From Candidatus Saccharimonadales bacterium (lineage in GTDB: Bacteria; Patescibacteriota; Saccharimonadia; Saccharimonadales; DATKHC01), in NCBI GenBank assembly GCA_035510465.1, contig DATKHC010000021.1, positions 130,876-194,875 on the forward strand: 64,000 nucleotides of DNA. The letters run 5' to 3'. A model generated the notes under the pieces. The model was not told the origin of the DNA. It ran no database searches and saw only the letters and a list, made by a program, of their open reading frames with translations. A program made the translations under genes and the position numbers. This document shows positions 5,975 to 63,300 of this stretch, piece after piece (position 1 is the stretch's first letter; each line of letters opens with the position of its first letter).

Positions 5975-7036
<1,062 letters not shown>

Positions 7037-7359: not shown

Positions 7360-8961
7360 TTAGATTTCTAACAGATCGGTCTTGTCCATAGTTAGACCAA
7401 TAACTGCTTGGGCTAATCTTGGATGGTCAATCTTAGGCTGTAGCTCAACGCCAAGTACCCTAACATCATGCACTTTAGTGGGGCCAAAGTTACCAATGAC
7501 CGTAACTGCGTTAGTGTCGTCTATTCGTACTTTGTTAAATAAAGCTTGATTAAGACAGCGCCTTAGCAGTGGATGGGCATTTAAATAGGCCTTTTCAAGA
7601 TTTAAGGTACTTGCTAGATTAACCGCTGCTTGGTAACTTCGTTTTGCGAAAGCACGAGCCCTAGTTGCATCACTAACTACCTCTTTGAGTAAACCTATCT
7701 CTTTATTGACACGCTTTTGCTCAATACCCAACATTTCACTGGATATTTCATCATCATAGAAGGCCTGCAAAATACGCTGGCGCTCCATGATTAGACGGCT
7801 AAGGCGCTTTTCCTGTCTAGTAAGTTCGGCTTTGCCGTTTGTGACCTCATATCGAAGCTGCGCTCGAACCTCTCGTTGCAAAGCAGCACGATCAGCTGAA
7901 GTAAGCTTTGTATTACTAAATTGTTTAGCAACTGCTTCCTCTACTAAGGCTGCCGGAATATAAAGCTGTGTACATTGCTGACCTTGCTGACGACTCAGAC
8001 AATAGAAGTAGGGATAGGCATTTTTATAGCGGTTTATAGTCAGCGTAAATGACATCCTTCGTCCACACTGGCCACAGAAAAGTGTGCCCAATAGGTAATG
8101 ATCGTGGGCTCTTTTTCTAATACCAGCTCGGCGACTATCACTCATGGCTTGAACATTGGCAAAAACAGCTGCAGAGACTAGCGGTTTATGCCTACCTCGA
8201 TACTCGATGCCACAATATTTTACATAACCGGCGTAGTAACGGTTATGGAGCATCTTGGCTATGCCAGATCGACCAATAGGCTTAGACATTGAAGTGCCTG
8301 TACGACGATTACGAAAGCCACGTTTATATAGTTCTTCAGTTATAGTTTTGACACTGTGATCGCCAGTCGCATAACGCTTGAAAGCCCAGGTAATGAGCGC
8401 AGATCGCTCAATATCTATGACAACTGTACGAGCTTCTCGTTCGTTGATTTGTCGACTTACATTAATATAACCAAGCGGTGCACGGTACGGTGTACCACCC
8501 CTTTTAGCTTTTTGAGTTGCACCTTTCAATGCTTCAGCTGCAAGATTACGGCTATAGAACTCGGCAATCGTTGCCATAATTCCATGGAGCAATTTCCCTG
8601 ACGGGGTTTCGTCAATGTTTTCAGTGACCGATACTAGCTGTGCTCCAGCTTTCTGAATAGCCAAGCCAATCATGACATCATCATGTAAGCTTCTCGCTAG
8701 ACGATCTACCTTATGGACAATGATGTAGTCAATTTCTTTCTTGCGATCACGTAGATCATTAAGTAGTCGCTGCAACTCCGGACGATCTGCTGACCTGGCT
8801 GATTCACCTCGGTCAACATACTCGTCAATTACGGTTGACTTTAAACTCTTGGCCTTGCGTTTGCAGGCCTCCCTCTGTGCAGGTATAGAAAAGCCTTCTG
8901 GCTGATCTCCCCGTATTGCTTGATCGAGTGTTGAAACTCGAATATATAATATTGCGTTCAT
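7360..8961 (-). CDS. Large serine recombinase (inverted relative to the other four)
   Basis: 533 aa. N-terminal resolvase motif ILYIRVSTLDQ, recombinase domain, Cys-rich zinc-ribbon region (CGQCGRRM..YYCLSRQQGQQC) and a coiled-coil region. Confidence 0.9.
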   Translation of the reverse strand: MNAILYIRVSTLDQAIRGDQPEGFSIPAQREACKRKAKSLKSTVIDEYVDRGESARSADRPELQRLLNDLRDRKKEIDYIIVHKVDRLARSLHDDVMIGLAIQKAGAQLVSVTENIDETPSGKLLHGIMATIAEFYSRNLAAEALKGATQKAKRGGTPYRAPLGYINVSRQINEREARTVVIDIERSALITWAFKRYATGDHSVKTITEELYKRGFRNRRTGTSMSKPIGRSGIAKMLHNRYYAGYVKYCGIEYRGRHKPLVSAAVFANVQAMSDSRRAGIRKRAHDHYLLGTLFCGQCGRRMSFTLTINRYKNAYPYFYCLSRQQGQQCTQLYIPAALVEEAVAKQFSNTKLTSADRAALQREVRAQLRYEVTNGKAELTRQEKRLSRLIMERQRILQAFYDDEISSEMLGIEQKRVNKEIGLLKEVVSDATRARAFAKRSYQAAVNLASTLNLEKAYLNAHPLLRRCLNQALFNKVRIDDTNAVTVIGNFGPTKVHDVRVLGVELQPKIDHPRLAQAVIGLTMDKTDLLEI

Positions 8962-15264: not shown

Positions 15265-15426
15265 ATGTCAGAAACGAGAGGGACGACAAATAAGACAAAG
15301 CAGCCACCAGAGGTTGCCTTATCTGAAGCTGAGCGCATTGAGTTAATCGCTAATTTAATAATCGACATTATTAGCGAGGAGCAAGAAAAACAAATTCCTG
15401 GGGACGAACTATGCAAAGTGAGTTAG
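15265..15426 (+). CDS. Micro-ORF upstream of the LSR (53 aa), candidate accessory/directionality factor
   Basis: Below the track cutoff. It overlaps the LSR start. It shares the helix motif ..ELIANLIIDIISEE.. with micro-ORFs upstream of other LSRs at 31529 and 55444. Confidence 0.35.
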   Translation: MSETRGTTNKTKQPPEVALSEAERIELIANLIIDIISEEQEKQIPGDELCKVS

Positions 15427-17138
15427 ACAGCAAAAACGCCGTAGCAGCTATTCGCGTTTCTACTACCAAACAAGGAACGGACGGTGATTCTCCGGAAGCT
15501 CAAAAAGAACAAATTGAGCGCTTTGCAAGCAATAAAGGTATCACAATCAAGAAGTACTTCGTGTTCATGGAATCAGCTTCCAAAGAGCAGCAACCTATGC
15601 AAGAAGCTATAGACTACTGTAAGAATCCAGAAAATAATATTGAGCTATTTATCATTAAGTCAATTGATAGATTTACAAGAGGCGGCTCACTCTCCTATGA
15701 TCTACTCAAAAACCAATTAGAAAACTGCAAAGTACGTTTAGTAGATATTTACGGCGTTATAAGCTCTGAGAAAATAAATACCCTCGAACACCTTAGAGTT
15801 TCATATAAATGGAGCGTATATTCGCCCAGCAAGAAATCAGAAATTTTAGAAGCTGAACGGTCAAAAGATGAACTACGCGACATTATGAGTCGGATGATTG
15901 GAGCTGAAATACGTTATGCACGTATGGGTTATTGGATGCACCAACCGCCTTACGGTTTTATTAGCGAAAAGCTTGATACTAGACACGGTAAACGTTGCGT
16001 ACTAAAACCTCACCCAACAGAAGCCCAGCTAATTATTAAAATGTTTGAGCTACGCGCCAAAGGCAATCTTTACGAGAAAGAGATAGTAGCCGAGATTAAC
16101 AAACTTGGCTTTAAAACTAGACTCCAGAACGTCCGTAGCAAGCTAGACCATACAAAAATAGTATCCAGGCGTGGTGGTGATCCCCTCACCGTTAAAGCTA
16201 TGCAAAAGTATATACAAAATCCTATTTACGCAGGAGTAAACGTTGAAAGATGGACCGAAGACAAACCTGTTAAGTGTGCATTTGACGGCTTAGTATCAAT
16301 TGAGCTATTTAACCGAGCTAATCAAGGCAAAAAGTTTATTGTTTTAGATGAACAAAACGTCCCAACTATACACAAAAAACTTCCGCCACCTCATCAACTC
16401 AACAAAGGTAGACGCAATCCAGACTTCCCTTATCGTAAGTTTATAGCTTGCCCACAGTGTCAGCGACCACTTCTCGGTAGTGCATCTAGGGGAAAGAACG
16501 GTAAATATTACCCAGCTTACCATTGCAGTAATTACGGCCATTACTTTCGTATTACCAAGCAGGAGCTAGACGAAACAGTTAGTGAGTTCATTGGTAGCTT
16601 ACAAGTATCTCCAAGCCGCATAAACACTGTAATAGATGCTGTCAAAGCCGAATGGCTACGAAGAAACCAGATACAAGGAAATGAGCTTCAAAGCTTAGAG
16701 GTACGCATTAAAGAGCTTCAGATGGAGGCTGAGACTACAATTAGAAAGATAAAGGTGTTAAGTAACGAAACGGTTATTAAATATATGGAGGAAGATATTA
16801 TGAAAATAGAACAGAAAATAAACACACTGACCCATCAAAAGACAGAAACAGAAGCCAAAAAGCCAGTGGATTTTCGTAGGGTCATGACTAAGGTACGTTA
16901 CCTAATCGAAAACCTCGATCAATTACTACTAAAACAGATTGACCCGATTAAAAAAGCTCAGTTTTTTGCAGCAATCTTTAACAGATTACCGTCTTACGAA
17001 GACCTAAAACCTGGAAACCCAAAAACAGCTCTTTTTACAGGGGTGAATCCAATTTTTAGCATAGCTAAAATGGAAAAATCTCTTGTGGTGCGCGGGGCGG
17101 GACTCGAACCCGCAAGCCTTTTGGGCAAGGGATTTTAA
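15411..17138 (+). CDS. Large serine recombinase; its 3' end overlaps tRNA-Leu antisense
   Basis: 575 aa. AAIRVSTTKQ catalytic motif, zinc ribbon CPQCQRPL..YHCSNYGH and a coiled coil. The last 17 codons (..VVRGAGLEPASLLGKGF*) are encoded by the antisense strand of tRNA-Leu. Confidence 0.9.
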   Translation: MQSELDSKNAVAAIRVSTTKQGTDGDSPEAQKEQIERFASNKGITIKKYFVFMESASKEQQPMQEAIDYCKNPENNIELFIIKSIDRFTRGGSLSYDLLKNQLENCKVRLVDIYGVISSEKINTLEHLRVSYKWSVYSPSKKSEILEAERSKDELRDIMSRMIGAEIRYARMGYWMHQPPYGFISEKLDTRHGKRCVLKPHPTEAQLIIKMFELRAKGNLYEKEIVAEINKLGFKTRLQNVRSKLDHTKIVSRRGGDPLTVKAMQKYIQNPIYAGVNVERWTEDKPVKCAFDGLVSIELFNRANQGKKFIVLDEQNVPTIHKKLPPPHQLNKGRRNPDFPYRKFIACPQCQRPLLGSASRGKNGKYYPAYHCSNYGHYFRITKQELDETVSEFIGSLQVSPSRINTVIDAVKAEWLRRNQIQGNELQSLEVRIKELQMEAETTIRKIKVLSNETVIKYMEEDIMKIEQKINTLTHQKTETEAKKPVDFRRVMTKVRYLIENLDQLLLKQIDPIKKAQFFAAIFNRLPSYEDLKPGNPKTALFTGVNPIFSIAKMEKSLVVRGAGLEPASLLGKGF

Positions 17139-17171
17139 GTCCCTCGTGTATACCAATTCCACCACCCGCGC
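17086..17171 (-). tRNA. tRNA-Leu (anticodon UAA), class II long variable arm, CCA encoded
   Basis: Manual cloverleaf: acceptor GCGCGGG/CCCGCGC, anticodon stem AGGGA/TCCCT with loop CTTAAAA, T arm GCGGG-TTCGAGT-CCCGC. Confidence 0.9.
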
Positions 17172-20829: not shown

Positions 20830-21939
20830 TTACGGTTGTAACCAAGCTTGGCGAAAGGAATAAAACGCTGGCTTTGGACGATATCTGCTATCAAACAGAT
20901 AGGAATGAGAATCCGTGTGGCCGAGCCATTTAAGTAAGTTTTCTTTGTCGCTAATTCCAAAGTTATCGAAACTGACGCAAGCTTTCGATTCTATGCAAGC
21001 CCTAACTATATTGTAAGTAATTTGAGCTTCTAGCTGATTTTTATAAGCACTGCTGCCCTTGACAGTGTTTAGATTGACGTCAAATTCAGTGATGTACACC
21101 GGAACGCCAATTGCAGAAAAACGCTGCATGTTTGTGATTATTGCTTCCTCGGATGGAGGATCAGACGCGTTAATGTGCATCTGCATACCAACCCCGTCGA
21201 TAGGAATACCTCTAGCTTTAGCAGCTACCACATAATTATATTCTGCGTTGGATATACTATTTTCGGTCTCATTATTAAAGTCATTGAGTAGTAATTTAGC
21301 ATTCGGGTCGGCTTGGTGAGCCCAAATAAAAGAGTCGTCAATGTAGGTGGTGCCACCGCCGGTATGATCAGCCCACCAATCACTTAATCCGTAGGTATGT
21401 TGTGCTCTTGAAAATGCCTCGTTGACGACTGACCACTGTGCCACCTTTCCCTTGTAATGCCCTACCACGTTAGAGATATAATCGTGAATAATGTTTAGTA
21501 GTTGCGCTTTGTTATAGTTACCGTTTTTTAGCCAGGCAGGCAGGAATTTTTGTTCACCCCAAACCAAATGATGTATTTGTACGGGCATATTGTGAGCCTT
21601 TGCAAAAGCCATAAGCTTATCAACTTTGGTGTAGTTATACTGCGTTAAAGACGGATGAATAGTATTCCAATTTGCCTCACCATCAATCGTTAAAAATGAA
21701 AATTGGGAGGTTAGAATATTTGTATACGGTTTGTCACTCAAACGAGATAGTGAAGCATGACTCCCAAGCTGAATACCATGAGCTGCCGCTAGGTCTTTTA
21801 AAGGCGGTTCCGGCAGATTAGGGGTCTTGATCGAAAAATACCAATAAAGTAACGGGATAGACAATATCAATAACGCAACCAGAATAGTTATTGGTATACG
21901 GGTTCTCTTTCTTAAGGTGTTCTTTTTCTTTTTAGCCAC
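20830..21939 (-). CDS. Membrane-anchored glycoside hydrolase family 10 (endo-1,4-beta-xylanase-like)
   Basis: 369 aa. N-terminal TM, then GH10 catalytic motifs WSVVNEAF and YITEFDV. Confidence 0.8.
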   Translation of the reverse strand: MAKKKKNTLRKRTRIPITILVALLILSIPLLYWYFSIKTPNLPEPPLKDLAAAHGIQLGSHASLSRLSDKPYTNILTSQFSFLTIDGEANWNTIHPSLTQYNYTKVDKLMAFAKAHNMPVQIHHLVWGEQKFLPAWLKNGNYNKAQLLNIIHDYISNVVGHYKGKVAQWSVVNEAFSRAQHTYGLSDWWADHTGGGTTYIDDSFIWAHQADPNAKLLLNDFNNETENSISNAEYNYVVAAKARGIPIDGVGMQMHINASDPPSEEAIITNMQRFSAIGVPVYITEFDVNLNTVKGSSAYKNQLEAQITYNIVRACIESKACVSFDNFGISDKENLLKWLGHTDSHSYLFDSRYRPKPAFYSFRQAWLQP

Positions 21940-22035
21940 GCCACATAATTATAGTTAATCTAGGGGATATGTACATGCTTATGTCTTGTACACCAAATGA
22001 ATAATTACAGCTAACTTTTAAAAAAAGGAGCTTAT

Positions 22036-22082
22036 CAAGAGAATGTGGTGGTTATCGACGGAAGTCGATTCACATTCTCTTG
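22036..22082 (-). terminator. Long hairpin downstream of the purE-purC fusion (putative terminator)
   Basis: Perfect 12-bp arms caagagaatgtg / cacattctcttg with an inner atcgac/gtcgat stem. In minus sense a T-run follows ~10 nt later. Confidence 0.4.
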
Positions 22083-22137
22083 ACAGAGCCCCGTAAAGTT
22101 TCACCTCCTTTATTTGTCAGGGCCCGTTTGGACCGGT

Positions 22138-23439
22138 TTAGACGAAGCTGCCCGTAAGCACAGCGACTTCATCAAAGTTTTTCTTGATCTGTGGCAAGGT
22201 CTGGCTACCGTCTCGGTAAGACTCCTTGGACACGTCCCTGTCGCCGAAGCGAAGTCGCCCGGAGTCACTGTCAATGACATCTGCTACGAGCAACTCGCCG
22301 GTTTCGTGGTCGTGGCCACCTTCGACTTTGTAGTCAAAGTACGTGCCGCCGAGTGCCGCCCAGGCCTCCTCGATAATCTCAAAGGCTCGGAGTGTGATGT
22401 CACACAGTTGCTCAATGAGCTCGAGAGTGACCCCGGCATAACGGCTATCCGCAAGAGGCTCTTCGCTGATCAGGTCGCCCGCTTTGACATTGTCTCCGAT
22501 AGCTTGAGCCGCCTTCTTGTTGGGCACATATCGCCTAAGCACGCCGGCCTTGAAATCAAACTCCAACAGCGGATCATGGTTGGCATCATCTTTCTCGAAG
22601 ATCTCAAAGACAAGCTCTTCAAAGACAGTGCCATCTGCCACGTCCGGATACCGGTCAAGGTAGCTACCTGTAGCGATACGTCGAGCAATAAGCTCAAGCG
22701 GGATCATGTCCACATCGCGAGCCCGGAAGGTTACGTCGTCGACCTTTTTCACGAAGTGGGTACGAACGCCGTGCCTTTCGAGTAGCTCGAAGATATTGCA
22801 GGTGGTCCTCGTGGAGGCGGCCCCCTTGCCCTCGATCACGTCGTGTCTGGCACCGTCGCCAGCGGTTATGTCATCCATGTTGCGGACGAGCACCTCTCCA
22901 TTGCCGACGTATTCGATTCTTTTGGTCTTGCCTCTTTTGGGTTTGGGGATATTGAACCGCGGTGGTTTGATCTTCGCCAGGACTTGTCCGAGCAATTCTG
23001 GATCAGGGTTGGGATCGTAGGCCCAAAGCTGTTGCTGCAGATCGGAGATGATGGCGTTGAAGCCATCGACGCCGACACCGCCATAAGCGACATCGATACC
23101 GGATGGCAGATGCAGAATGCTGATCTCGGCATCCTTACCATCACGGTAATCATCCGACGGCAGCGCGATCCCATAGACCTTCGCTAGTGACCTGCCGAGC
23201 AGATGTGCTTTGACGACGCCAGGCAAGGCAGCAGCCCAACCAGCAGCACAAACATATGCCCCGGTAGTCCCGATGGTCTCGTTGATGCGCTTGGCCAGAG
23301 CAGCCGCGTTACGATGCGCCGACAAAGTTGCAACGGCATAGGTTATGCCGTCAGCCTCCAGCGCGTCTAGAAGCTCCGAGTCCCACAAGTAGTGGAGATC
23401 GCTTTCGCTACCAAGAATCACTTCAGCGTGAGGTATCAT
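22138..23439 (-). CDS. Bifunctional PurE-like (AIR carboxylase/mutase) and PurC (SAICAR synthetase) fusion protein
   Basis: 433 aa. The N-terminal half has GSESD..SAHRN..AAGWAAALPGVV..LPSG (PurE pattern). The C-terminal half has DDITAGDG..GKG..FELL..GVRTHF..YFDYKVEGG..LVADVIDSDSGRLR (PurC pattern). The region is visibly GC-rich. Confidence 0.8.
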   Translation of the reverse strand: MIPHAEVILGSESDLHYLWDSELLDALEADGITYAVATLSAHRNAAALAKRINETIGTTGAYVCAAGWAAALPGVVKAHLLGRSLAKVYGIALPSDDYRDGKDAEISILHLPSGIDVAYGGVGVDGFNAIISDLQQQLWAYDPNPDPELLGQVLAKIKPPRFNIPKPKRGKTKRIEYVGNGEVLVRNMDDITAGDGARHDVIEGKGAASTRTTCNIFELLERHGVRTHFVKKVDDVTFRARDVDMIPLELIARRIATGSYLDRYPDVADGTVFEELVFEIFEKDDANHDPLLEFDFKAGVLRRYVPNKKAAQAIGDNVKAGDLISEEPLADSRYAGVTLELIEQLCDITLRAFEIIEEAWAALGGTYFDYKVEGGHDHETGELLVADVIDSDSGRLRFGDRDVSKESYRDGSQTLPQIKKNFDEVAVLTGSFV

Positions 23440-23571
23440 GATCCTCTTTCTCTCGTTTCCGATTGGATAATTTGCTTCTCTTTGATTGGCCGGTAGTTTT
23501 CTTCTACCGTGGTGAAAAGGTCCAGTGACAATTTGTCACATGTGCTAAATCATGCCACGCCTACGGTACGA

Positions 23572-24342
23572 CTACAAGCATAGGCAGTTTGACTTTAAGA
23601 ACCCCAGAAGGGTTGGAGGGTTACACGAAAGCTCGATTCTCTTTTCGCTGTCTATGGAAACTCTGTGCTTAAGCGGTGAATGGAATGGCCGCAGAGTCGT
23701 AAATCCGATTCTTCGGACAACTCCCGACAACTTCTCATACTGCTTATTATATTTTTCGTTAAATACTTCAAGATTTCTGTACGCAGTTTCCTGCTCGCCG
23801 TTAACGGAGGCTGGGTATTCAGTAGACATCATCCTTGTCCAAATAAACTCTAATAATTTATCCCTAGCTAACCGTTTATCTTCGCGAAGTTTGTTTTCAT
23901 ACGATATAGCCTCTTCGCTGGTGATGATATCAACGAGTAAACCCCATAACTGCTTCAAGCTAAGCTCATCTTCTATATAGACTGATTCTACTAATCTACC
24001 TTGACGATCTGTTTTGAAACTCGCGCCCTCTATCCTATCCTTAGCAATAATTACTTGCCATATTGTTCTTTCGCCTTGGCTGCCTCTACTCAACTGCCAT
24101 AAATATTCGCCGCTTTCTGTTGAGTCAAATATCAAAGTGTCTACAAATAGCCTCTGTTGACTTCCATGTTCATGTTTTGACTGTTGTAGCACTACCCCAC
24201 GACCTTCATCCAATAATTCTTGGCGGGATTCCCGGTAGTATTCAGAAAAGTGATATAGGTTAATCGCAGTAAATTCTGAAGGTACTAAAAAAGCGGCCCG
24301 AGGCCGCTCATCTAATTCATTTATTGTTTCTAGTATATGCAC
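23572..24342 (-). CDS. Hypothetical protein
   Basis: 256-aa ORF with no motif recognised. Confidence 0.5.
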   Translation of the reverse strand: MHILETINELDERPRAAFLVPSEFTAINLYHFSEYYRESRQELLDEGRGVVLQQSKHEHGSQQRLFVDTLIFDSTESGEYLWQLSRGSQGERTIWQVIIAKDRIEGASFKTDRQGRLVESVYIEDELSLKQLWGLLVDIITSEEAISYENKLREDKRLARDKLLEFIWTRMMSTEYPASVNGEQETAYRNLEVFNEKYNKQYEKLSGVVRRIGFTTLRPFHSPLKHRVSIDSEKRIELSCNPPTLLGFLKSNCLCL

Positions 24343-29044: not shown

Positions 29045-29307
29045 ACTACCTACATTATATCTCTGCTACACCTTACAAGTGCTATAATTTCAGCAACGCC
29101 CAAAGCGTTGTAACAATTTGGTATGACCTAACCCCAAGCATTTGTTTGGGTATGGTCGTAAATCCTAATCAGAGCCTTGAGCTAGTTGTTCAGGTATCTG
29201 ATTAGGTCATAGTCCGAAAGGTCTATGGGTGGCCGCAAGGTCGCCGCCTGGCAGCTAGCTCTGTTGTTTTCTGTCAGGCTAACTAACAAAGTCTGAAAGG
29301 AGACAAT

Positions 29308-31794: not shown

Positions 31795-33357
31795 ATGCCT
31801 AAACAAATACTAGCCATAGCATTGTGCAGAGTATCTTCTCTTGAGCAGTTACAAAGTCACAGTCTTGATAATCAAAAAGACAAAGTATTAAGAGCTGCTG
31901 AGGTACTTGGAGCAACCATACCTGCTGATGGTATATGGTCAGGTCATGTATCAAGTAAAAAGGGCGTGAACTATGACCGCAAAGACCTCAAGGAAATGCT
32001 TGAATACTGTAAGAAAACTCCAAATGTTAAGTACCTTATAGTTCAAGAGGTAGATAGGTTTATGAGAAGCCCTGATGAGCAGGTGTATTTCCAGGTCAAG
32101 TTTAGTGAAGAGGTGGGAGTTAAGATATGGTATGCCGATAAGCCTGAGCTTAATGAAGATAATATATATGCTGGCCTGATGAGGTACATGGAGGGGTTTC
32201 GTGCTGCTGGCAGCAATGATGAACGCCAAAGAAAATCAATCACAGGACAAACAAACGCCCTTAACGCTGGAAGATACCCATTTGCTCCAAAGCCAGGCTA
32301 TATTAGGGGGCATATTCCTGGCATACAAGAGCTTCACCCTGTTAGAGGCAAAATACTACAAGATACTTTGATTAGCATTGTTACTAAACGATTATCACCC
32401 ACTCAAGCTCTCATTAAGCTAAATGATAGCGAGTATATGCAGGGTCATTCTCCATACAAAATGGACAAGTTCAGGACTATCGTCACAGACCCTTTTTATG
32501 CTGGAATTGTTGAAATTGATAAACAAGTACAAGTCCGAAACGAAAACGGCTTGCATGAGCCACTGATAACCAAAGAGCAACACAACAAGCTACTTGAGAT
32601 TATGAACGCTAAGAAAAAGGTGCAAGCTGGCCCAAGAAAAGGCGGTAACCCTGAATACCCATTATCAAACCAAGTAAATTGTATTGAGTGCAGAGAGGCA
32701 AGGAATGGCCGACTTGTGGGCTACAAACATGGTAACGGCAAACCTAACTCAACGCTCGTGTATCACAAGTATCGCTGTCGGTCTTGTGCTAGATACCAGT
32801 CCAGAGAGGAACTTCACCCAAAAATTGCTCAAAAGTTCAATGAGAGGCCAGTCACTGATGGCGGTAAGCAAGACCTGTTAGAGGCGTTGAAGATAGTTTG
32901 GGAGCAAAATGAAAGCCAAGTAGAACAAGACATAAACCGCTTGCAACATAGCATTGACCAGCTTGATAGCTTTATTGAAGAGCGAGTAAATGCTGCAACT
33001 GACCCAAAGTACAGTGCGATTGCAACAGACATCATGAAGTTGGTAGAGAAAAAGAAGACCGAACGCTCAAAGTTACAAGAGCAGCTTTCAAACCTTACTA
33101 CAACGGCTGATGAAGATAATGAACGGTTTCTTGATTTTGCCTTTGATTATCTTAACGACATAGGTAAAAACTTCTTCAGCCCTGATGTGTCACTTGAAAA
33201 CAGATTGAGGTGTAAACAAGCTATATTTCCAGCAGGATTTTGGGTTGATAAAAATAGAAAAGTTTACACCCCTGAAATAAGCTATCTTTACAGATTGGCG
33301 GAAAAGAAAAAGGACGCCAGAGCGTCCAATAATTCCCTAATGGTGCGGCATAGCTGA
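31795..33357 (+). CDS. Large serine recombinase (integrated, C-terminally truncated form)
   Basis: 520 aa. AIALCRVSSLEQ motif, zinc ribbon CIECREA..YRCRSC and a coiled coil. It ends SLMVRHS*, 3 codons after the TGGTGC core. Confidence 0.9.
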   Translation: MPKQILAIALCRVSSLEQLQSHSLDNQKDKVLRAAEVLGATIPADGIWSGHVSSKKGVNYDRKDLKEMLEYCKKTPNVKYLIVQEVDRFMRSPDEQVYFQVKFSEEVGVKIWYADKPELNEDNIYAGLMRYMEGFRAAGSNDERQRKSITGQTNALNAGRYPFAPKPGYIRGHIPGIQELHPVRGKILQDTLISIVTKRLSPTQALIKLNDSEYMQGHSPYKMDKFRTIVTDPFYAGIVEIDKQVQVRNENGLHEPLITKEQHNKLLEIMNAKKKVQAGPRKGGNPEYPLSNQVNCIECREARNGRLVGYKHGNGKPNSTLVYHKYRCRSCARYQSREELHPKIAQKFNERPVTDGGKQDLLEALKIVWEQNESQVEQDINRLQHSIDQLDSFIEERVNAATDPKYSAIATDIMKLVEKKKTERSKLQEQLSNLTTTADEDNERFLDFAFDYLNDIGKNFFSPDVSLENRLRCKQAIFPAGFWVDKNRKVYTPEISYLYRLAEKKKDARASNNSLMVRHS

Positions 33358-39219: not shown

Positions 39220-40716
39220 ATGGAAACTAAAGTAATCTTAATCGCCAGAGTTTCAGACAAAGAGCAACGTAAAGCGTTGCCCGCTCAAAAACAAAGACTT
39301 GAAAACTATGCCAATGATGTACTAAATAAGCCTTTCAAGTATTACCAGTTTGACGAAAGTGCCTATAAAGACGACAGACAAAAGTTCGCCTCGCTGATTG
39401 AGGATAAAATCCAATCACTAAAACACCCTGCCATTATCGTATTTGATAAGATTGACCGCTTTACCCGTGACGCATCCCAACGTGAGGTACGGATAATAAG
39501 TACTTTAGTAGAAAAAGGTAGTATTGAAATACACTTCCCGTCTGACAACCTATTCATTACCAAAAACTCACCTGCAACTGATTTGTTCAGGCTCGGTATC
39601 GGTATGCTACTGGCAAAATACTACTCAGATGCCAGTCGGGATAATGTCAAACGCCGATTTGAACAGATGCTAACCGATGGTATTTGGGTACACCGTGCCC
39701 CTATTGGCTACAAGAACATCATTGTAGGCGGCACACCACAAAGACCAATTAAAGGCATTGAGGTTGATGACGAAAAATCCCCTCACATCTTGAAAGCCTT
39801 TGAGATGAGAGCACTTGGCACACCCTACGAGATAATCGCTAGGCAGCTCAATGAGGACGGTTTCCGAACCAATGCGGGTAATAGAGCAACCAGAGGCTAT
39901 ATTGAACGAACACTAAACAACAAGTTTTATTATGGCAAGATGGTACATGGCGACAGAGAATACGACCATCATTACCCGCCAATCGTTAGCCAAGCACTGT
40001 TCAGAGAGAGCCAACGGATTAGAGAGCACCGCAAGCATGAAAAGACCAAGTACGACAGTAAAGACTACGCTTTCAAGAAAATCGTAAAGTGCGGCAAGTG
40101 TGGACGCTCAGTATCGCCGTTTAAGGCTCGTAACACAGTTTACTTGAGATGTGCCAACAACCATTGCGTTAATCCAAATACAGCCGTATCGCTTATAATA
40201 GACGGCGTGACTGATGACGTTTGTAATGTAGATGTACCTGAAAACTGGATTGACCAAGTTATTGCCGAGTTACGCAAACGCCACGATAACCAGCAGCTAT
40301 ACTTCACACAGAACATTGAAACTGCCCGTGCTGAGTACGACAAAATCAAAGAAAAGATGCGTAAGTTGTACTACGACCTACTTGAGGGACGTATTACTCA
40401 GCCTTTCCATGACGAAATTGCAAATGAACTTGAAGCAAGACAGCAGGAACTTAACGATAGGCTCAAGATGCTAACAAGTGATAATAAGTCATTCCAAGTG
40501 ACTGCTTCTTATCTGTTGGACTTGGCTCAGCGAGCCGAAAAGCTGTTCAAAGAGAGCGATGAGGGTTTGCAGCAAAAACTTTTAGACTACGTACTTTCAA
40601 ACATTGAACTTAACGACAAAAAGTTGTCATATATACTAAACGAACCCTTTAGAACGATAGTTGAGGCAAAGAAAAAAGCCCTTTCAGGCTCAAATCCAAA
40701 CTTATGGTGCGAGTGA
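39220..40716 (+). CDS. Large serine recombinase; stop codon lies inside the tRNA-Gly 3' end
   Basis: 498 aa. LIARVSDKEQ motif, zinc ribbon CGKCGRSV..LRCANNHC and a coiled coil. It ends ..NPNLWCE*, with TGG TGC GAG TGA being the antisense of the tRNA CCA end and acceptor stem. Confidence 0.9.
   Translation: METKVILIARVSDKEQRKALPAQKQRLENYANDVLNKPFKYYQFDESAYKDDRQKFASLIEDKIQSLKHPAIIVFDKIDRFTRDASQREVRIISTLVEKGSIEIHFPSDNLFITKNSPATDLFRLGIGMLLAKYYSDASRDNVKRRFEQMLTDGIWVHRAPIGYKNIIVGGTPQRPIKGIEVDDEKSPHILKAFEMRALGTPYEIIARQLNEDGFRTNAGNRATRGYIERTLNNKFYYGKMVHGDREYDHHYPPIVSQALFRESQRIREHRKHEKTKYDSKDYAFKKIVKCGKCGRSVSPFKARNTVYLRCANNHCVNPNTAVSLIIDGVTDDVCNVDVPENWIDQVIAELRKRHDNQQLYFTQNIETARAEYDKIKEKMRKLYYDLLEGRITQPFHDEIANELEARQQELNDRLKMLTSDNKSFQVTASYLLDLAQRAEKLFKESDEGLQQKLLDYVLSNIELNDKKLSYILNEPFRTIVEAKKKALSGSNPNLWCE
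40668..40690 (-). terminator. Putative terminator of tRNA-Gly, embedded antisense in the LSR coding sequence
   Basis: Minus sense: AGCC-tgaaag-GGCT followed by TTTTTCTTTG, 14 nt after the tRNA 3' end. The T-run is the antisense of Lys codons (..AKKKAL..). The stem is weak. Confidence 0.4.
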
Positions 40717-40780
40717 CGGGATTCAAACCCGTGGCCTCTTCCTTGGCAAGGAAGCGCTCTATCAGCTGAGCTACACTCGC
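40705..40780 (-). tRNA. tRNA-Gly (anticodon GCC), CCA encoded
   Basis: Manual fold: acceptor GCGAGTG/CACTCGC, anticodon stem CTTCC/GGAAG with loop TTGCCAA, T arm with GGTTTGAATCC. Confidence 0.9.
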
Positions 40781-41248: not shown

Positions 41249-42511
41249 TTATTTAGGATCTATAAATTCTTTACACAATCTTTCAAATATAGAATTAGTC
41301 CAACCAAAGCCCGTTTGTGAAGGATAGACTCCTTTTAGGGGTGGCTTTGACGGGGAAACTACGTTATATTTTTCCAAAAATTCACCGTGTTCGTTGAACC
41401 AGGCTAGGTTGGTTCTAATCCACTTTTGAGCAATGTCTTTAGCTATTTTATCGTAACCATATCGTTTAAGACCCTCTATCACAATAAAGTGCAGTGGCGC
41501 CCAACCATTAGGATAGGCCCACTGAGTTGGAATGGCGCCCGGTACCAATTGATTAAACTGTTGGGCATCGGTTGTTGACAAGCCACCTCTTTGTTCAAAA
41601 CGTTTGATGGAGTGGACTAATTGATCAGCTTGAACCTGGTCAATCATACCCGCCCACATGGGGTAGAAAGTGGCAAGCGAGTTCACTACACCCCGCTTTT
41701 CTTTTACGAAGTTGTAATCATAATACATTCCTCGAAGATCGCTCCACATTAGCTCGTCGATTATATTTTTTCTATGATCCGCGGCTTTTGCCCATTGTGA
41801 TGCAGTTTCTTTTTCACCAGTTAATTCGTAAAAACGGACAAAATCCATTTCATAGCGAAATAGCAAACTATTAAGGTCAATCGGGAGATAATTAAGACAT
41901 TTTCTGTTGAATCTTGGCGTTAGATCCCAGCCACTTTCGGCCTCAGCCAAATCATGTAGATAATTTATATCGTAATACCGTGACAAGCCCTGGTAAATAA
42001 GTCGGGCGTTGGGTTTTACGGTACCCGTCCATACCGTGTGATACTCTTCTTCAGCAACTGCTATACGAGGCTTTAGCCATTCCAATCCTAAGTCGTATCT
42101 ATCATATAAGTTGAAGATAAAGGTCGTCAGGAAAGGCGGCTGTGACCGTCCTGTTAAGTATGTCCTGGATGCATTCGGGATAATTTTAAAGTGTTTAAAT
42201 AGACTTATTAAGTTATCGAGTATCCCTATTACTAGCTCTTTATGCTCATTGTCGAGAAGTCCCTGAACTACAAAGTAACTGTCCCAGTAATACATCTCAT
42301 TATAGTCAAACTCATGACTGGGTGAGTAGGCTGGCACGATGTATGGGTATGGTAAGCCAAATAAACTTTCGTCATCTTTAGGGTGATAGCGAATAAGCTT
42401 TGGCCAATAATCAGCAATATATTTTCTGGCAGCAGCCACATCGATCGAAGTGAGATCCTGTGTATCGCTGAAGAGGCTTTTTGCTATTTCTTTTGGTTTA
42501 GAGAACATCAT
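41249..42511 (-). CDS. Alpha,alpha-trehalase (GH37)
   Basis: Trehalase signatures YYWDSYF and WAYPNGWAPL. The track starts at TTG 42532; ATG 42511 is preferred. Confidence 0.8.
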   Translation of the reverse strand: MMFSKPKEIAKSLFSDTQDLTSIDVAAARKYIADYWPKLIRYHPKDDESLFGLPYPYIVPAYSPSHEFDYNEMYYWDSYFVVQGLLDNEHKELVIGILDNLISLFKHFKIIPNASRTYLTGRSQPPFLTTFIFNLYDRYDLGLEWLKPRIAVAEEEYHTVWTGTVKPNARLIYQGLSRYYDINYLHDLAEAESGWDLTPRFNRKCLNYLPIDLNSLLFRYEMDFVRFYELTGEKETASQWAKAADHRKNIIDELMWSDLRGMYYDYNFVKEKRGVVNSLATFYPMWAGMIDQVQADQLVHSIKRFEQRGGLSTTDAQQFNQLVPGAIPTQWAYPNGWAPLHFIVIEGLKRYGYDKIAKDIAQKWIRTNLAWFNEHGEFLEKYNVVSPSKPPLKGVYPSQTGFGWTNSIFERLCKEFIDPK

Positions 42512-42580
42512 TTTCAGACTAATCCTTTGCAACCGATATCGTCAAGTGTAATAAACTAAGCGGAATTAAAGAAAATCTAC

Positions 42581-54449: not shown

Positions 54450-54878
54450 ATAACTACTTACTATCCTTGCTATTTGTTGACTCCGAGACTTAAAAGCTCG
54501 CCACTAAGCGAAACCGAAGTCTCTGTAACCGTTTCCAGCTACAACTACAACGAAGAGTACTCAATGACGAGCTGTCTTTCGTTGTAGATTTATTGACCAT
54601 GCCATTAAAGAATGGTTTAGGTTGAAGTGGTAAAACCACTTAATTGAAATTATACATCTAGTTGCTTAGTTGCGCCGATAGACCATGTTGAACCTAGTTA
54701 AGTACCTATAAACATATTGATTAGCAATGTTTCGTGTAGCGCCCAAAAAAATAACAAATAGTACCCATAAAACAAATATGGGGAACACCCCTGTCAGATA
54801 TATATCTAATCCATCTCTTACGCCGTTCTGGTACGGTACCAAACGTATCCCTATTTAATAGGGGTCGATAAACAAAGC

Positions 54879-55704: not shown

Positions 55705-57321
55705 ATGAAGGAACAAGGTATAGCACTATGTCGTATTTCCTCCGATGACCAAATTAAGGGTCATAGCCTTGAGGCTCAAGACACTAGCACCAGGAAAGCA
55801 GCCAATAGTATCGACGTTGAGTTAATTAAGACTTGGACGGAAGTTAAGTCAAGCAAAAAAGGTAAAAACTTTGGAAGAAAAGATTTGGAAGAAATGCTAC
55901 GTTTTTGTAAACAAAACAAACGCGTTAAATACCTTTTTATAGATTTCATGAGCCGCTTAATGCGAGAGGTTGAAGTAATGATTTACTATAAGGTACTGTT
56001 CAACCAAATGGGTGTGAAATTACATTTTTGTGACCCTTCACAACAGCACCTTAACGGAGAAGACCAAATCGCTCAACTTATGCGATTAATAGAGGGTTAC
56101 AAATCGGAAACAGAAAATACAGCCAGACAAGAAACAACTATTGCTCGAATGAAAGCTCGGTATGAGGCTGGTTACTATATTTCACACCCACATCAGGGTT
56201 ATATAAAATCAGATGTGGCTGGTGTGCACATCCCTGACCCAAAGAGATTCGATTTATTACAAAAAGGTGGTCGTTTGATGATTTACGAGCAGCATAGCGT
56301 TCAGCAAGCAATCAAATGGATGAATGAAAACGGATATTTAACATTAGGCGGTAGACCACTCGACTTAAATCACTATATAGAATTTATTGTAGATAGATAT
56401 TACTGTGGCATTATTGATATACAGTCAGAGGGTTGGCCTAAAGATATACTCGGATTACATCAACCCATGTTTACGCAACGCGAACATAAAATACTTTCCG
56501 CTTTAATAACGAAGCGGAATCCACGCGTTAGACAAGCACACAATCCCGACTTCCCAATGTCTAATATTATTAGGCATAAGGAGTGCGAGGGTATTGGACG
56601 TTACGAAAAGTTTACTGGTCATATTTACAATCGAGGGAAAAGGCCTAGTGGTAGTCAAAGACCATTAAAGCCGGTTTATGATTGCCGAGATTGCAGACAA
56701 CGGATACAGAGGGATAAGGCGCACTCCTCTCTCACACACTACTTAAGCAAATTAAACCTACTGCCTGACGAAAAGCACTTTAAAGAGGCTTTGATTCGTG
56801 TCTGGAGAAGTCAAAGAGGTTCTCAATCCCAGAGACTTAACAGTCTACAGGGCAATAAGGTTAGGATTGAGCAGAAAATAAGAGAAACTGCTGCTATTTA
56901 CGCTTCTGAACAAGATGAATCCATTAAACAATCACTTGGCTTACTGTTAAAAGACTACGATGCTCAATTGAAGCAAATTGATACAGACGTTACCAGCAAT
57001 AAAAACTTAGAAATAGAGTCAGAAGATTTCGTCCGTTTCGCTATGGACTTCGTGGCTAACCTCAAGAATAAATGGTGGAAATTAAGCTGGGATAACATTG
57101 CGAGGGGTGAACAAGTTTTATTTAACGGCAAAATTTACATTGATAATTCTGCAAAAGTTCACACCCCCAATTTAAGCTCAATTTACAGATTAGGGACAAA
57201 CAAAAAAGCACTAGAAAATGCTTCTAATGCTCATTTGGTGGAGCTGCCGGAGTACTGCCCTCCGGGTCCGCTAGCTTACTGTAGCCAATCTTCTACGAGT
57301 GTAGGTCATTTAGATAAGTAA
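55705..57321 (+). CDS. Large serine recombinase; its 3' end overlaps the tmRNA antisense
   Basis: 538 aa. IALCRISSDDQ motif, Cys pairs (..YDCRDCRQ..) and a coiled coil. The last ~28 codons (..HLVELPEYCPPGPLAYCSQSSTSVGHLDK*) are the antisense of the tmRNA 3' domain. Confidence 0.9.
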   Translation: MKEQGIALCRISSDDQIKGHSLEAQDTSTRKAANSIDVELIKTWTEVKSSKKGKNFGRKDLEEMLRFCKQNKRVKYLFIDFMSRLMREVEVMIYYKVLFNQMGVKLHFCDPSQQHLNGEDQIAQLMRLIEGYKSETENTARQETTIARMKARYEAGYYISHPHQGYIKSDVAGVHIPDPKRFDLLQKGGRLMIYEQHSVQQAIKWMNENGYLTLGGRPLDLNHYIEFIVDRYYCGIIDIQSEGWPKDILGLHQPMFTQREHKILSALITKRNPRVRQAHNPDFPMSNIIRHKECEGIGRYEKFTGHIYNRGKRPSGSQRPLKPVYDCRDCRQRIQRDKAHSSLTHYLSKLNLLPDEKHFKEALIRVWRSQRGSQSQRLNSLQGNKVRIEQKIRETAAIYASEQDESIKQSLGLLLKDYDAQLKQIDTDVTSNKNLEIESEDFVRFAMDFVANLKNKWWKLSWDNIARGEQVLFNGKIYIDNSAKVHTPNLSSIYRLGTNKKALENASNAHLVELPEYCPPGPLAYCSQSSTSVGHLDK

Positions 57322-57632
57322 TTAGAGAGCAAACGACCAAAAACTAACTACTTGTGTCCTAAATCTTTACAATACTTACGGACAGTAAGCACTGTGCATC
57401 CAGATAAATTGACACGAATATACATTATCTGACGTCATGCAAATCCGTGGCTCCAGAAATTAAACTGAAGCTAGTGCGTATTGACGAGGAACAAGGTTCT
57501 TTACAGAATCCTTGACCCAAGCTACTGCGCTAGATACTTTTGTTGCATCTACATTGGTTTGCCGTATAACGCTCAGCCAGCGACTCGCTGATATAGCTTG
57601 TAAGGTCCAACGTCGAGCTTAAAATCAGCCCC
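57236..57632 (-). ncRNA. ssrA: tmRNA (SsrA)
   Basis: The 5' end GGGGCTGATTTTAAGCTCGACG and 3' end ..CGGAC-CCGGAG-GGCAGTA-CTCCGG-CAGCTCC-ACCA match canonical tmRNA ends (E. coli ends ..GGAC..CAGCTCCACCA). The acceptor stem has a G3:U pair. The internal tag ORF ends ..PRQYALASV-TAA. Confidence 0.85.
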
Positions 57633-60370: not shown

Positions 60371-63300
60371 TTATATCAACTTATTAAATGGAGCAAACGC
60401 CAAAGATAAATTCTTTAAGCCACCCTTCTTAAAATGAACTACTACCCTATCGCCGGCTACTTCAATCACCTCCCCGGGCCCAAAAATCTTATGATTAACC
60501 AAATCACCCTCAGATACTTCAATTTCATAACGAACTTCATCCTCATAGGCATGGCTAGTAAGCTTTTCTGAGTTTTGGTCTAGGTCGTACTGATTAGGCG
60601 AGGTTTCAAACTCTGCCTCCATATCGCTCAAAAACCTTGACGGGGGGTTATGTTGAACGCTGCCATAAAGTAGACGACTGGTTGCATAGCTTAGGTAAAG
60701 CTCTTTTTTTGCCCTGGTCATGCCAACATAACAGAGCCGTCTCTCTTCCTCTAAATTTTCTTGGTCGTATAGTGAGCGGCTACTTGGGAATATTGTTTCT
60801 TCCATCCCAACCATAAATACAGTCGGAAATTCCAAACCTTTAGCTGCATGCATCGTCATAAGCGTTACGCTATCTTCTTGGGTCTGTGCCATTTCAAGCT
60901 TAGATATTAACGACACTCCCTCTAAGAACTCTCCGAGATCAGAGCTTAAATACTCTTTCGTAACGCTAAGCAGTTCCTGGACGTTTTGTGTCCGGCTCTC
61001 CCCCTGAATAGTACCGTCACTTAAGAAAGCATAATAATCTACTCGTCTGACTAGACTATCAATCAAACTATTTAGGGGTGCTTCCTCGCTGTATTGTTTA
61101 AGCGAACTTAGGATGTCAGCCAGCTCACCAAGCCCAGTCTTAGCTTTAGTAGTTAGACTTGGATGCTTGTCCGCTCGGTTTAGGGCTTCCGATAGAGAAA
61201 GTTTATTCTGGTGCTGCCATATGAAAAAGTCACTTAGTGATTTGGCGCCTATGCCTCTGGTGGGCACGTTAACAATTCGCTCAAAACTAATCCGATCTTC
61301 GGGCTGGTAGATTAATCTAAGGTAAGCAATTATATCCTTAATTTCTTTTCTATCGTAAAAACGTAGTCCGCCGACAATCCTGTAAGGAACTGCATAGCGA
61401 ATAAAAGCCTCTTCCAAAGCACGGCTCTGGGCATTGATACGGTACAAAATCGCAAAATCTGCATAATTATTTAGCTTTGCATCGGCCAGTGCCCGGATTC
61501 GGGTTACAATTGCCTCCGCTTCCTCAGACTCCGAAGAGTATTGAACTATATGAACGGGTTTACCGCTGCCCTCAGACGTCCAAAGTTTTTTTTCCGATCT
61601 CTTCTGATTTTTGCTTATAACGGAGTGGGCGGCATCTAGGATTGACTTTGTGCTGCGATAATTTTGCTCAAGTTTTATTATTTGGGCTCCAGGAAAATCT
61701 TGCTCAAACTTCAAAATATTACGAAAATCTGCTCCCCTCCACGAATAAATTGAATTGTGCACAGCGATGCCTGACACAAGGTAGGTATGCACTTTTTCTA
61801 TATCTAGGTCGTAAACAAAACCAGAATATGTTTGTTTAGTAACCTCTACGACCTTATCTGTGACGATCTTGTCCCCCTCAAGCACAGGAATATCCATTTC
61901 TTGGTGAATTTGGCCAGCTGGCATAAAATAAAACTTCTTATTAGTTAAGAAACTATACTTAATAAGTATAGTTTCCTCAGTCTTACCTTGTTTGATCTTT
62001 TCAACTATTTGTTCGATTTTTCCGTAATCAAGATTTGAGATCTCTGTTCTGAATGTTCCTGCCCGGCCGGCCCTTATGGTGTAGCCCAAGTCCTCAAACA
62101 GTTTTAAGTCTTTTTTTGAAGTTGTATTTACGGAAATTCTACTCGCTGACCAGCCGCCTTGCCCCGCAAGCCTCTTGTCCCCAAAAAGGACAACGTTTAT
62201 TACGACCCTTTTGCGGTTTTTTCTACTCGTTGCTTGAGGCAAAAAGTGCGGATACTCAAAAGCTAAGCCTAATTCAGTCATTAGTTTTTTTGCTCTTTCC
62301 TCGGTATCAATTTCGGAATAAATTGCGTCAATGTGTTTCTGGCTAATGTACATAGATCGGTTGGCGAATGCATGAAATACAAGCATTGGTATACCGTACT
62401 TATATGCATAGAGCGATTCAGTGTATATCGCTTCGTCTTTATCCTTGCAGACCTTAATAATCCACATTCGGTCTGCTCTTTCCTGATTTGCCCTCACACG
62501 CAGCCCAATATCGTCCTTTTTACCATCAAATCTGGTACCTTTGGCTAGTCCTATCCGATACCCTTTCTCGGATGAGTACATTAAATATACGAAATAGGAA
62601 TCGGTTTTTTCCCATCGAGCAAAGAGAAGATGGTTTGGTGTACAAACTAGTTCCTTGCCGGAAGCTGTCTTAATACGTATGACATCCCCTTTGTAGGCAA
62701 ATTTCTTTTGACTCTCTACTTTAAAATAACCCGTATTTCCATAACCGCTGGCGGATTTAACTAAATATCCTTTTTTTATGGCTTCTATTTTTCTGCTACC
62801 CTCTTTGGTTTCGATGAGGCTCCCTGGCATTAAACATTGCCAGTCATCACCCACAACTGCGATATTTTTTTGCTTTCCCAGGAGAAGCTTGATCAATTCA
62901 TATTGAGCCTGGTTAGTGTCCTGATACTCATCAACCATGATGTATTTGAACTGTTTTTGCCATTTTAATTTAACCTCGTTGTCGGACCTTAGAAGTTGTA
63001 CGGTCTTTAGGAGTAGGTCATCAAAATCAAGACCATGGGCCTGTTTTAAGATTGATTCATACTCCGGAAAGACACTAGCTGCCACCCGCTGCAGCTGACC
63101 ACTAGCTAGAGTTGCGTAAGTTTCCGGGTCAATCATTTCATTTTTACTAGAACTGATTATTGAGCTGATTGAACGAGCAGGATAACTTTTCTCTTCAATT
63201 TTGAGGTTTTTCATGGCCTGTTTGATCGCATTTAGATGGTCAGCCTCATCAAAAATAACGAAGTTTGACGGGATACCAATGTTTGCGCCATCAACTCTTA

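Follow-up and report, generated by a model that had tools for sequence, protein, structure and literature searches.

A GC-rich PurE-PurC fusion gene with conserved non-coding flanks in a Saccharimonadales bacterium: a probable horizontally acquired cassette for late purine synthesis

Saccharibacteria are thought to be fully dependent on their hosts for nucleotides. Why, then, should one of them carry an intact gene for two consecutive steps of purine synthesis, in DNA that is much richer in GC than its surroundings? The question is raised by a stretch of 64,000 nucleotides from a Candidatus Saccharimonadales bacterium (contig DATKHC010000021.1, positions 130,876 to 194,875 of the forward strand), which is called the window here. 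One open reading frame (ORF) in it encodes a PurE-like domain followed by a SAICAR (succinylaminoimidazolecarboxamide ribonucleotide) synthetase, or PurC, domain. The original prediction, made from the DNA sequence, was that this fusion had been acquired horizontally as a two-step salvage or bypass module. The answer that we favour, as probable rather than certain, is that the region from about 22020 to 23583 is a horizontally acquired and self-contained expression cassette for a bifunctional late-purine enzyme.

The gene and the elements around it are listed in Table 1. The ORF of 433 residues contains the GSESD, SAHRN and AAGWAAALPG motifs from which the fusion had been recognized, and Pfam finds both domains: AIRC (PF00731) at residues 7-129 (E 7e-14, 52 bits against a cutoff of 30) and SAICAR_synt (PF01259) at residues 168-410 (E 8e-39, 134 bits against a cutoff of 20). 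The AlphaFold model has a mean pLDDT (predicted local distance difference test score) of 88.6 and contains both folds, the PurE fold being in the N-terminal half; Foldseek ranks PAICS/PurC first, and then PurE. The protein is 100% identical to one named from a Candidatus Saccharimonadales metagenome-assembled genome (MAG).

The GC content of the gene is 0.555, compared with 0.413 ± 0.026 for 45 other ORFs of the window (z = 5.4), and the GC content at third codon positions (GC3) is even more deviant (z = 6.2). In 200-nt segments the GC content is 0.51-0.60 within the gene and about 0.37-0.45 in the flanks, with sharp boundaries at about 22100 and 23450. No 1-kb segment elsewhere in the 64 kb exceeds 0.49, and the gene is the most GC-rich stretch. 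It is overlapped by five shadow ORFs of 75-223 residues within 22114-23187. Both the GC-rich island and its overlapping ORFs had been predicted, and the limits then given to the island (22036-23540) are nearly equal to the span of DNA homology between the window and related loci, which runs from about 22038 to about 23560, just beyond the ORF on both sides. An independent Logan assembly (L013) has the same gene order as the window, so the island is not a misassembly.

Table 1. Parts of the cassette in the window, followed by the gene in the other genomic contexts that were read (loci labelled L).
Feature	Position	Strand	Description	GC3 of gene	GC3 of surroundings
Promoter-like block	23549..23583	minus	CTATGCTTGTAG-N17-CATGAT; aligned in window, L001, L002, L012		
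5' leader	23492..23539	minus	hairpin 23525-23539; CTGGACCTTTTCACC 23511-23525; second hairpin 23492-23508		
purE-purC fusion gene (window; same context in L013)	22138..23439	minus	433 aa, fused; stop codon 22138-22140; from ORF list, Pfam AIRC + SAICAR_synt; neighbours GH10 xylanase and unknown ORF	0.631	0.368 ± 0.043 (45 other ORFs)
PurE-like half, aa 1-165	22945..23439	minus	Pfam AIRC, fold of predicted structure		
SAICAR-synthetase (PurC) half, aa 166-433	22141..22944	minus	PAICS-like subtype with ~50-aa insertion		
3' element, part 1	22088..22134	minus	small hairpin after stop (22121-22134); hairpin with Shine-Dalgarno-like loop GAGGTGAA (22088-22123)		
3' element, part 2	22020..22086	minus	long hairpin, apex GAATGTGNNTCGAC...GTCGRTA, then U-run (intrinsic-terminator-like)		
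Gene in L001			fused; neighbour purH	0.78	~0.44
Gene in L002			fused; neighbour purB	0.76	~0.55
Gene in L009			fused; neighbours hydrolase and tilS-ftsH	0.69	0.38
Genes in L012	2001-3339		unfused pair, 4-nt gap; without pur neighbours	0.75 / 0.85	0.46
Genes in L137	7094-8471		unfused pair, 1-nt gap; without pur neighbours	0.75 / 0.78	0.40-0.56
Gene in L136			purC only; DHFR adjacent, FolD 8 kb away	0.73	0.43-0.61
Gene in L014			fused, distant clade; purH one ORF away, SHMT nearby		
Gene in L015			fused, distant clade; purB adjacent	0.82	0.46

Full-length fusions of the window clade form about 12 clusters at 90% identity, and the window protein is 62-70% identical to the other 11. Using the PurE half as the query added nine more clusters, all of them stand-alone PurE-like proteins. 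More distant PurE-PurC fusions, with PurC halves 43-50% identical, occur on other contigs that resemble the candidate phyla radiation (CPR). A scan with the PurE-half alignment, taking one genome per species, found the fusion in only one of 185,579 species genomes, namely a Candidatus Saccharibacteria MAG; the genome of the window itself does not belong to this set of species representatives. Only the window and loci L001 and L008 carry Saccharimonadales or Saccharibacteria labels; the other loci appear to be CPR from their gene content.

Counting the window, the gene was read in nine contexts, which are distinct and non-homologous neighbourhoods. In eight of them it is richer in GC than its surroundings, while L014, on a contig of 55% GC, is the only context in which it is compositionally native. 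Horizontal acquisition is therefore well supported, by a composition that is an outlier in the window, by nine different neighbourhoods (with GC-rich islands in eight) and by flanks, described below, that travel with the gene. The original prediction named a conserved purine operon in all close relatives as one observation that would speak against transfer; this was looked for, and a full purine operon is present in none of the nine contexts. The gene looks like a horizontally spread metabolic patch.

The copies in the window, L001, L002, L009, L012, L015, L136 and L137 are mutually old (dS 1.2-2.8, saturated), yet each is richer in GC than its host. Long residence in these hosts would make such persistent GC-richness unexpected. 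This combination implies either repeated uptake from an unsampled GC-rich reservoir, or a force that keeps the gene GC-rich. In the tree the unfused copies of L012 and L137 nest among fused copies, which indicates that fusion or fission has occurred more than once.

The conserved DNA includes non-coding elements on both sides of the gene. The promoter-like block, aligned in four loci, can also be recognized by eye in L136 and L137, although a simple sigma-70 scan did not detect it. The upstream ORF ends within the block, with its stop codon overlapping the -35 box. The hairpin of the 5' leader covaries. The leader motif CTGGACCTTTTCACC is identical in the window/L013, L002 and L012, has diverged in L001, L136 and L137, and occurs once in the window; downstream of the leader is a Shine-Dalgarno sequence, AAGAGGA, at 23442-23448. 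The upstream ORF itself (256 aa, 23572-24342, minus strand) has a weak match to the HamA/DUF1837 defence protein (E 5.5e-4). A further 120 metagenome loci that match the 15-mer CTGGACCTTTTCACC were rejected as chance matches, since none of them has the cassette or the arrangement of promoter plus motif.

On the 3' side, the second hairpin downstream of the gene displays a Shine-Dalgarno-like loop, GAGGUGAA, and RNAalifold run on four and on six loci finds covarying stems in this first part of the element. Over the whole 3' element, RNAalifold on six loci predicts 32 pairs, 17 of them with compensatory changes, mostly in the long hairpin, which in the window is followed by the U-run. The 3' region of the window has a folding z-score of -5.7, and three further loci give values of -3.6 to -6.2. 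The apex motif GAATGTGNNTCGAC is unique in the window and is found in the loci only beside cassettes; likewise the flank motifs as a group occur nowhere else in the window, and beside no other gene in any locus. Rfam 15 gave nothing at the gathering score for the flanks, the best sub-threshold match being rli56 (E 0.95). Conservation of the flanks despite saturated synonymous sites implies that they have a function. On this reading the unit consists of a single ORF together with a promoter-like box and conserved 5' leader in front of it, and a structured 3' end that resembles a terminator.

There is also an indication that the two flanks pair with each other. Two segments on the 3' side are complementary to the leader (GGACC:GGUCC and UUUCACC:GGUGAAA). 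Double substitutions are seen there in L001 and L137, and over six sequences 80% of cells are paired, compared with 23-46% in slid controls. Only in L001, however, is the duplex energy between the 5' and 3' untranslated regions (UTRs) better than that of shuffled controls, and part of the covariation is accounted for equally by a local 3' hairpin. Long-range pairing between leader and 3' element is only suggestive.

The best match of the PurC half among solved structures is human PAICS (2h31, E 9e-40), followed by insect PAICS (E 5e-36), and its Foldseek TM-score relative to PurC targets is 0.85. Compared with PAICS it has an insertion of about 50 residues, at 292-341. The nucleotide- and CAIR (carboxyaminoimidazole ribonucleotide)-binding motifs all align with PAICS, and the canonical ATP-, CAIR- and Asp-site motifs are invariant: GKTK, RRxAxGS, KDDxxHDP, DxKxE, DSDSGRLR and SKxxYR are unchanged in 43 homologues. 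Its score against the NCBIfam PurC equivalog TIGR00081 (104.9 bits) is below the cutoff of 189.9, as it is in every tested member of the PAICS-like subfamily (about 100-111 bits). In a related fusion, P0229, the PurE half scores 185 bits, above its own cutoff of 149.6, and the PurC half again only about 100 bits. The low PurC score is therefore a trait of the subfamily, and not a sign of decay.

Purifying selection is evident from a dN/dS of about 0.1-0.2 against relatives (dN 0.12-0.37, with dS in the saturated range given above), and at columns that hardly vary the window copy does not stand out from the others. On this comparative evidence the fusion protein looks like a selected, catalytically competent bifunctional enzyme. 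The two activities predicted for it are the conversion of AIR (aminoimidazole ribonucleotide) or N5-CAIR (N5-carboxyaminoimidazole ribonucleotide) to CAIR, and of CAIR, Asp and ATP to SAICAR.

In the PurE half, GSxSD, SAHR (His42) and AGxAAALPG are invariant across the family, and S11, D14 and S40-A41-H42-R43 are invariant in 12 fusions, so that the ribose-phosphate motif GSxSD and the catalytic-His loop are both in place. The closest solved structures are PurEs of class I type (M. jannaschii 2ywx, E 5e-10, 42.7 bits), ahead of T. denticola 3rg8 with 27 bits. Class II PurE, the animal AIR carboxylase, has signatures of the SAHK and AGRSNGLGP type. The window protein has SAHR and AGWAAALPG in their place, and does not match the AIR carboxylase domain of PAICS at E ≤ 1 among solved-structure sequences, which places it outside class II. 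Nor does it have the two hallmarks of class I, the His-containing loop signature and a PurK partner, though class I-type enzymes are its best sequence matches: neither the window nor any other of the nine contexts read has a gene for PurK or an ATP-grasp protein. Class I PurE requires a PurK partner (PMC3261824).

The original prediction compared the fusion with animal PAICS, in which the same two activities are joined in the opposite order. The comparison holds: animal PAICS (2H31, 6YB8, 4JA0) and the window protein carry the same two consecutive purine steps on one polypeptide, and the order is indeed reversed. PAICS is an octamer with SAICAR synthetase at the N-terminus and a class II AIR carboxylase at the C-terminus, whereas the window protein has PurE first, and a class I-like PurE half, which sets it apart from the PAICS family. 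The bacterial fusion is evidently independent of the PAICS fusion. With monofunctional PurE (2YWX, 3OPQ, 1QCZ) it has in common the fold, GSxSD, SAHR and the AGxAAxLPG loop, and with monofunctional PurC (2YZL, 1KUT, 2GQR) the fold, GKxK, RxxAxGS and DxKxE. It differs from both in being fused, in the His to Ala change in the loop, in having both halves below the equivalog cutoffs, and in lacking purK or an operon in the window. The distant PurE-PurC fusions (P0128, P0131, P0138, P0141, P0143, P0162 and P0229) have the same architecture, but with PurE halves of a more canonical kind, which reach 190 bits in Pfam. The conserved flanks of the window clade are missing from them, and in a neighbour-joining (NJ) tree they are scattered among stand-alone PurCs. 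Fungal and plant Ade2 (PurK-PurE) and methanobacterial PurE-PurE' are precedents for fusion of PurE, but with other partners and no PurC; they are also precedents for the formation of CAIR without PurK (PMC3261824).

The function that we propose for the cassette is as follows. The N-terminal domain would make CAIR from AIR and CO2, or from N5-CAIR that had formed spontaneously. The C-terminal PAICS-like domain would then convert CAIR to SAICAR, using ATP and aspartate. As in animal PAICS, fusion would keep a labile intermediate from leaving the protein, here by an arrangement of opposite order that was arrived at independently. Together with PurB and PurH this would give the route AIR→CAIR→SAICAR→AICAR (aminoimidazolecarboxamide ribonucleotide)→IMP (inosine monophosphate), by which a purine-auxotrophic Saccharimonadales cell could upgrade a scavenged imidazole intermediate. 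The fusion would then be part of a patchy late purine route in bacteria that have no de novo synthesis. The scheme presumes that purB and purH lie elsewhere in this genome, that AIR is available from some source, and that the PurE half can act independently of PurK. Class I-like PurEs without PurK do exist, and the PurE of E. coli can form CAIR from AIR when bicarbonate is high (PMC3261824). Saccharimonadia are reported to be without de novo synthesis of nucleotides and to occur together with Actinobacteriota (PMC12592800).

The neighbours of the gene connect it to the purine pathway in several relatives. Either purH (L001, L014) or purB (L002, L015) is beside it in four of the nine contexts, and the presence of DHFR, FolD or SHMT near it in L136 and L014 was also counted as a link to the pathway. 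The purH gene of L001 (5941-7545) is GC-rich like the cassette, with a GC3 of 0.71 compared with about 0.44 in the flanks, and to judge from this composition it may have been acquired together with the cassette. The purB gene of L015 (11415-12800) is poorer in GC than the host DNA (GC3 0.33).

Several observations weigh against the proposed function and route of acquisition. In five of the nine contexts the gene is without a pur neighbour. A tblastn search of the window, for which PurH and PurB of related loci served as queries, gave no match at E ≤ 1, and no pur gene besides the fusion, including purB, purH and purK, was found in the 64 kb by Pfam (50 ORFs) or tblastn, in agreement with the prediction that no other purine-biosynthesis gene lies nearby. 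The only nucleotide-related genes that Pfam finds in the 50 ORFs encode a Ham1 ITPase, a NUDIX protein and a uridine-kinase-like protein. We know of no source of AIR or CAIR for such organisms. The 70s loop of class I PurE has the signature AGGAAHLPG, with a conserved His. In the PurE half it reads AGWAAALPG, with Ala in place of this His in all members of the family, and the half scores only 41.2 bits against the NCBIfam purE equivalog (TIGR01162, N5-CAIR mutase), for which the cutoff is 149.6. Finally, the closest relatives of the PurC module are in actinobacterial fusions with DNA-binding domains, outside purine operons, which leaves room for a non-canonical role. As regards the means of transfer, no integrase is adjacent to the cassette; the closest serine recombinase (15411-17138) is beyond tRNA-Leu and tRNA-Cys, and is part of an element there. 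No convincing direct or inverted repeats were found at insertion ends around the gene, and a search of viral contigs, GenBank phages and plasmids for a vector gave only ordinary purC genes of at most 32% identity. The idea of a two-step salvage or bypass module is plausible but incomplete: SAICAR alone is useless without PurB and PurH, which are absent from the 64 kb, and genes for one or the other flank the gene in four relatives.

The actinobacterial proteins raise the question of where the cassette came from. The PurC module is 72-75% identical in protein sequence, and 72-74% in DNA sequence, to a very large set of more than 1000 proteins from high-GC actinobacteria, with named examples from Acidimicrobiales, Frankiales and Trebonia. 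The fusions examined (P0016, P0098 and P0030) have the PurC module complete with the insertion and every catalytic motif, as in the window protein, but the N-terminus is MerR, an extracytoplasmic function (ECF) sigma factor or another helix-turn-helix (HTH) domain instead of PurE. Their genes stand alone in non-purine contexts of high-GC genomes. Genes for these proteins, which include P0016, P0098, P0030 and P0112, are at 8001-9167 in L003, 8001-9443 in L004 and 1730-2872 in L006. Searches for a donor by domain and tree produced close actinobacterial relatives of the PurC half, while no donor lineage could be named. A homologue search with the GC-rich PurH of L001 pointed to no donor either, since few of its matches carry organism names.

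A direct transfer of the cassette from a high-GC actinobacterial host of the epibiont is the alternative that survives best. It is consistent with the identity of the PurC half to genes of the Acidimicrobiales, Frankiales and Trebonia type, with the association of Saccharimonadales with Actinobacteriota (PMC12592800), and with the nearly native composition of the gene in the actinobacterial loci, where GC3 is only slightly lower than in the neighbours. The rest of the cassette points elsewhere. All contigs on which the PurE half and the conserved flanks were found are of CPR type; the flanks are absent from the actinobacterial loci read, and DNA homology to actinobacterial genes extends only from the boundary of the PurC domain to the stop codon. 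The search found no actinobacterial protein with a PurE half of this type, whether as a fusion or by name. Its only relatives were the nine stand-alone PurE-like clusters; the one of these with a contig that was read (L137), and the unfused pair of L012, are in cassette contexts of about 50% GC. NJ bootstrapping joins the tight clade to P0125, the PurC of L136, at 97%, but internal nodes have only 4-49% and do not order the Saccharibacteria relative to the actinobacterial sequences, or give a direction of transfer. P0125 branches outside the tight clade, yet L136 has the flanks, and the flank-bearing cassette is therefore probably ancestral to the clade, as far as the sequences indicate. The shared flanks favour transfer of the module from CPR to Actinobacteria, while the high GC of the cassette favours the reverse, and the evidence only leans between them. 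We regard a direct actinobacterial donor as unlikely.

A second alternative, which we find quite unlikely, accepts the transfer of the cassette and questions its function: the pair of domains could act on a non-canonical heterocyclic nucleotide, or make or sense a signalling metabolite, and have no part in IMP synthesis. PurC homologues have been recruited to nucleoside-antibiotic pathways in Streptomyces (ForC, CofB/PenC). The use of the module in more than 1000 MerR, ECF-sigma and HTH proteins in non-purine contexts agrees with such a role, as do the low equivalog score and His to Ala change of the PurE half and the lack of pathway partners in the window. It is opposed by the invariance of the canonical ATP-, CAIR- and Asp-site motifs, by the four relatives with adjacent purH or purB, by the related fusion with a fully canonical PurE half, and by the lack of any signal for a defence system or other family. 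PADLOC defence models gave no match for the fusion, and MerR-type matches on the actinobacterial proteins were to the HTH domain only. A literature search on PurE-PurC fusions, on fusions of SAICAR synthetase with MerR or sigma domains, and on partial purine pathways in Patescibacteria found nothing relevant.

It could also be argued that the gene is an orphan passenger, recently acquired and still intact but tied to no working pathway here, and heading for loss. The missing pur partners in the 64 kb, the patchy distribution (one in 185,579 species genomes) and the plasticity of the region, which has five serine recombinases, a reverse transcriptase and toxin-antitoxin genes, would all fit. 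Yet both the ORF and its regulatory flanks are intact, the protein deviates no more than its relatives do at positions that hardly vary, and a GC3 of 0.63, compared with 0.69-0.85 in other copies, suggests partial amelioration and long residence under selection. We consider this very unlikely. That the island is an artefact of chimeric assembly or binning, or else a native gene with a composition shaped by selection, is scarcely credible: the GC-richness of mutually old copies is odd for a simple recent transfer, but the context is identical in an independent assembly, the sharp composition boundaries coincide with the homology boundaries, and the relatives occupy nine different neighbourhoods.

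The favoured reading, of a transferred cassette for a late-purine enzyme, has some wider consequences. What the locus contains is known enzymes with two unexpected attachments, namely conserved structured flanks and a module shared with actinobacterial regulators. The PurE-PurC protein is a second case, evidently of independent origin, in which the two PAICS activities have been fused, with their order reversed. A selected and repeatedly transferred PurE-PurC, often beside PurH or PurB, suggests that some Saccharibacteria may salvage pathway intermediates and not finished bases, an idea that makes the question of what they take from their hosts a testable one. Two leads come from the comparisons: uncharacterised, conserved and covarying UTR elements on a purine gene, and a large family of putative actinobacterial transcription factors with a PurC module that appears catalytically intact. 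A bolder form of the same reading, to which we give rather little weight, is that a mobile unit consisting of promoter, mutually pairing leader and 3' structure, and PurE-PurC circulates among ultra-small epibionts from an unsampled GC-rich reservoir, and that Actinobacteria have taken over its PurC module, which in them would serve a large family of transcription factors of the MerR, ECF-sigma and HTH types as effector domain. If this were true, intermediates at the level of CAIR and SAICAR would be a currency or signal between epibiont and host, and the flanks would be a new class of cis-regulatory RNA on purine genes.

The remainder of the window contains several other features. The five large serine recombinase genes are at 7360-8961, 15411-17138, 31795-33357, 39220-40716 and 55705-57321. 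Three of them end on or inside an RNA gene of the opposite strand (tRNA-Leu 17086-17171, tRNA-Gly 40705-40780 and tmRNA 57236-57632), which suggests that there are several integrated elements. An RVT_1 reverse-transcriptase gene (5975-7036), which could be that of a retron or group II intron or else encode a reverse transcriptase of the defence type, lies beside a serine recombinase gene and near genes for a PIN toxin and a PLD-like protein. The RNA genes of the window are one tmRNA, five tRNAs and two LOOT RNAs, the latter both above the Rfam gathering threshold (29125-29245, plus strand, 84.6 bits; 54510-54623, minus strand, 63.9 bits). An intein splicing domain, at residues 285-616, splits a UvrD/PcrA-type helicase of 1076 residues (60371-63601). 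The GH10 xylanase directly downstream of the cassette (20830-21939) and a trehalase (41249-42532) both have a host-like composition, and are consistent with a carbohydrate-scavenging lifestyle.

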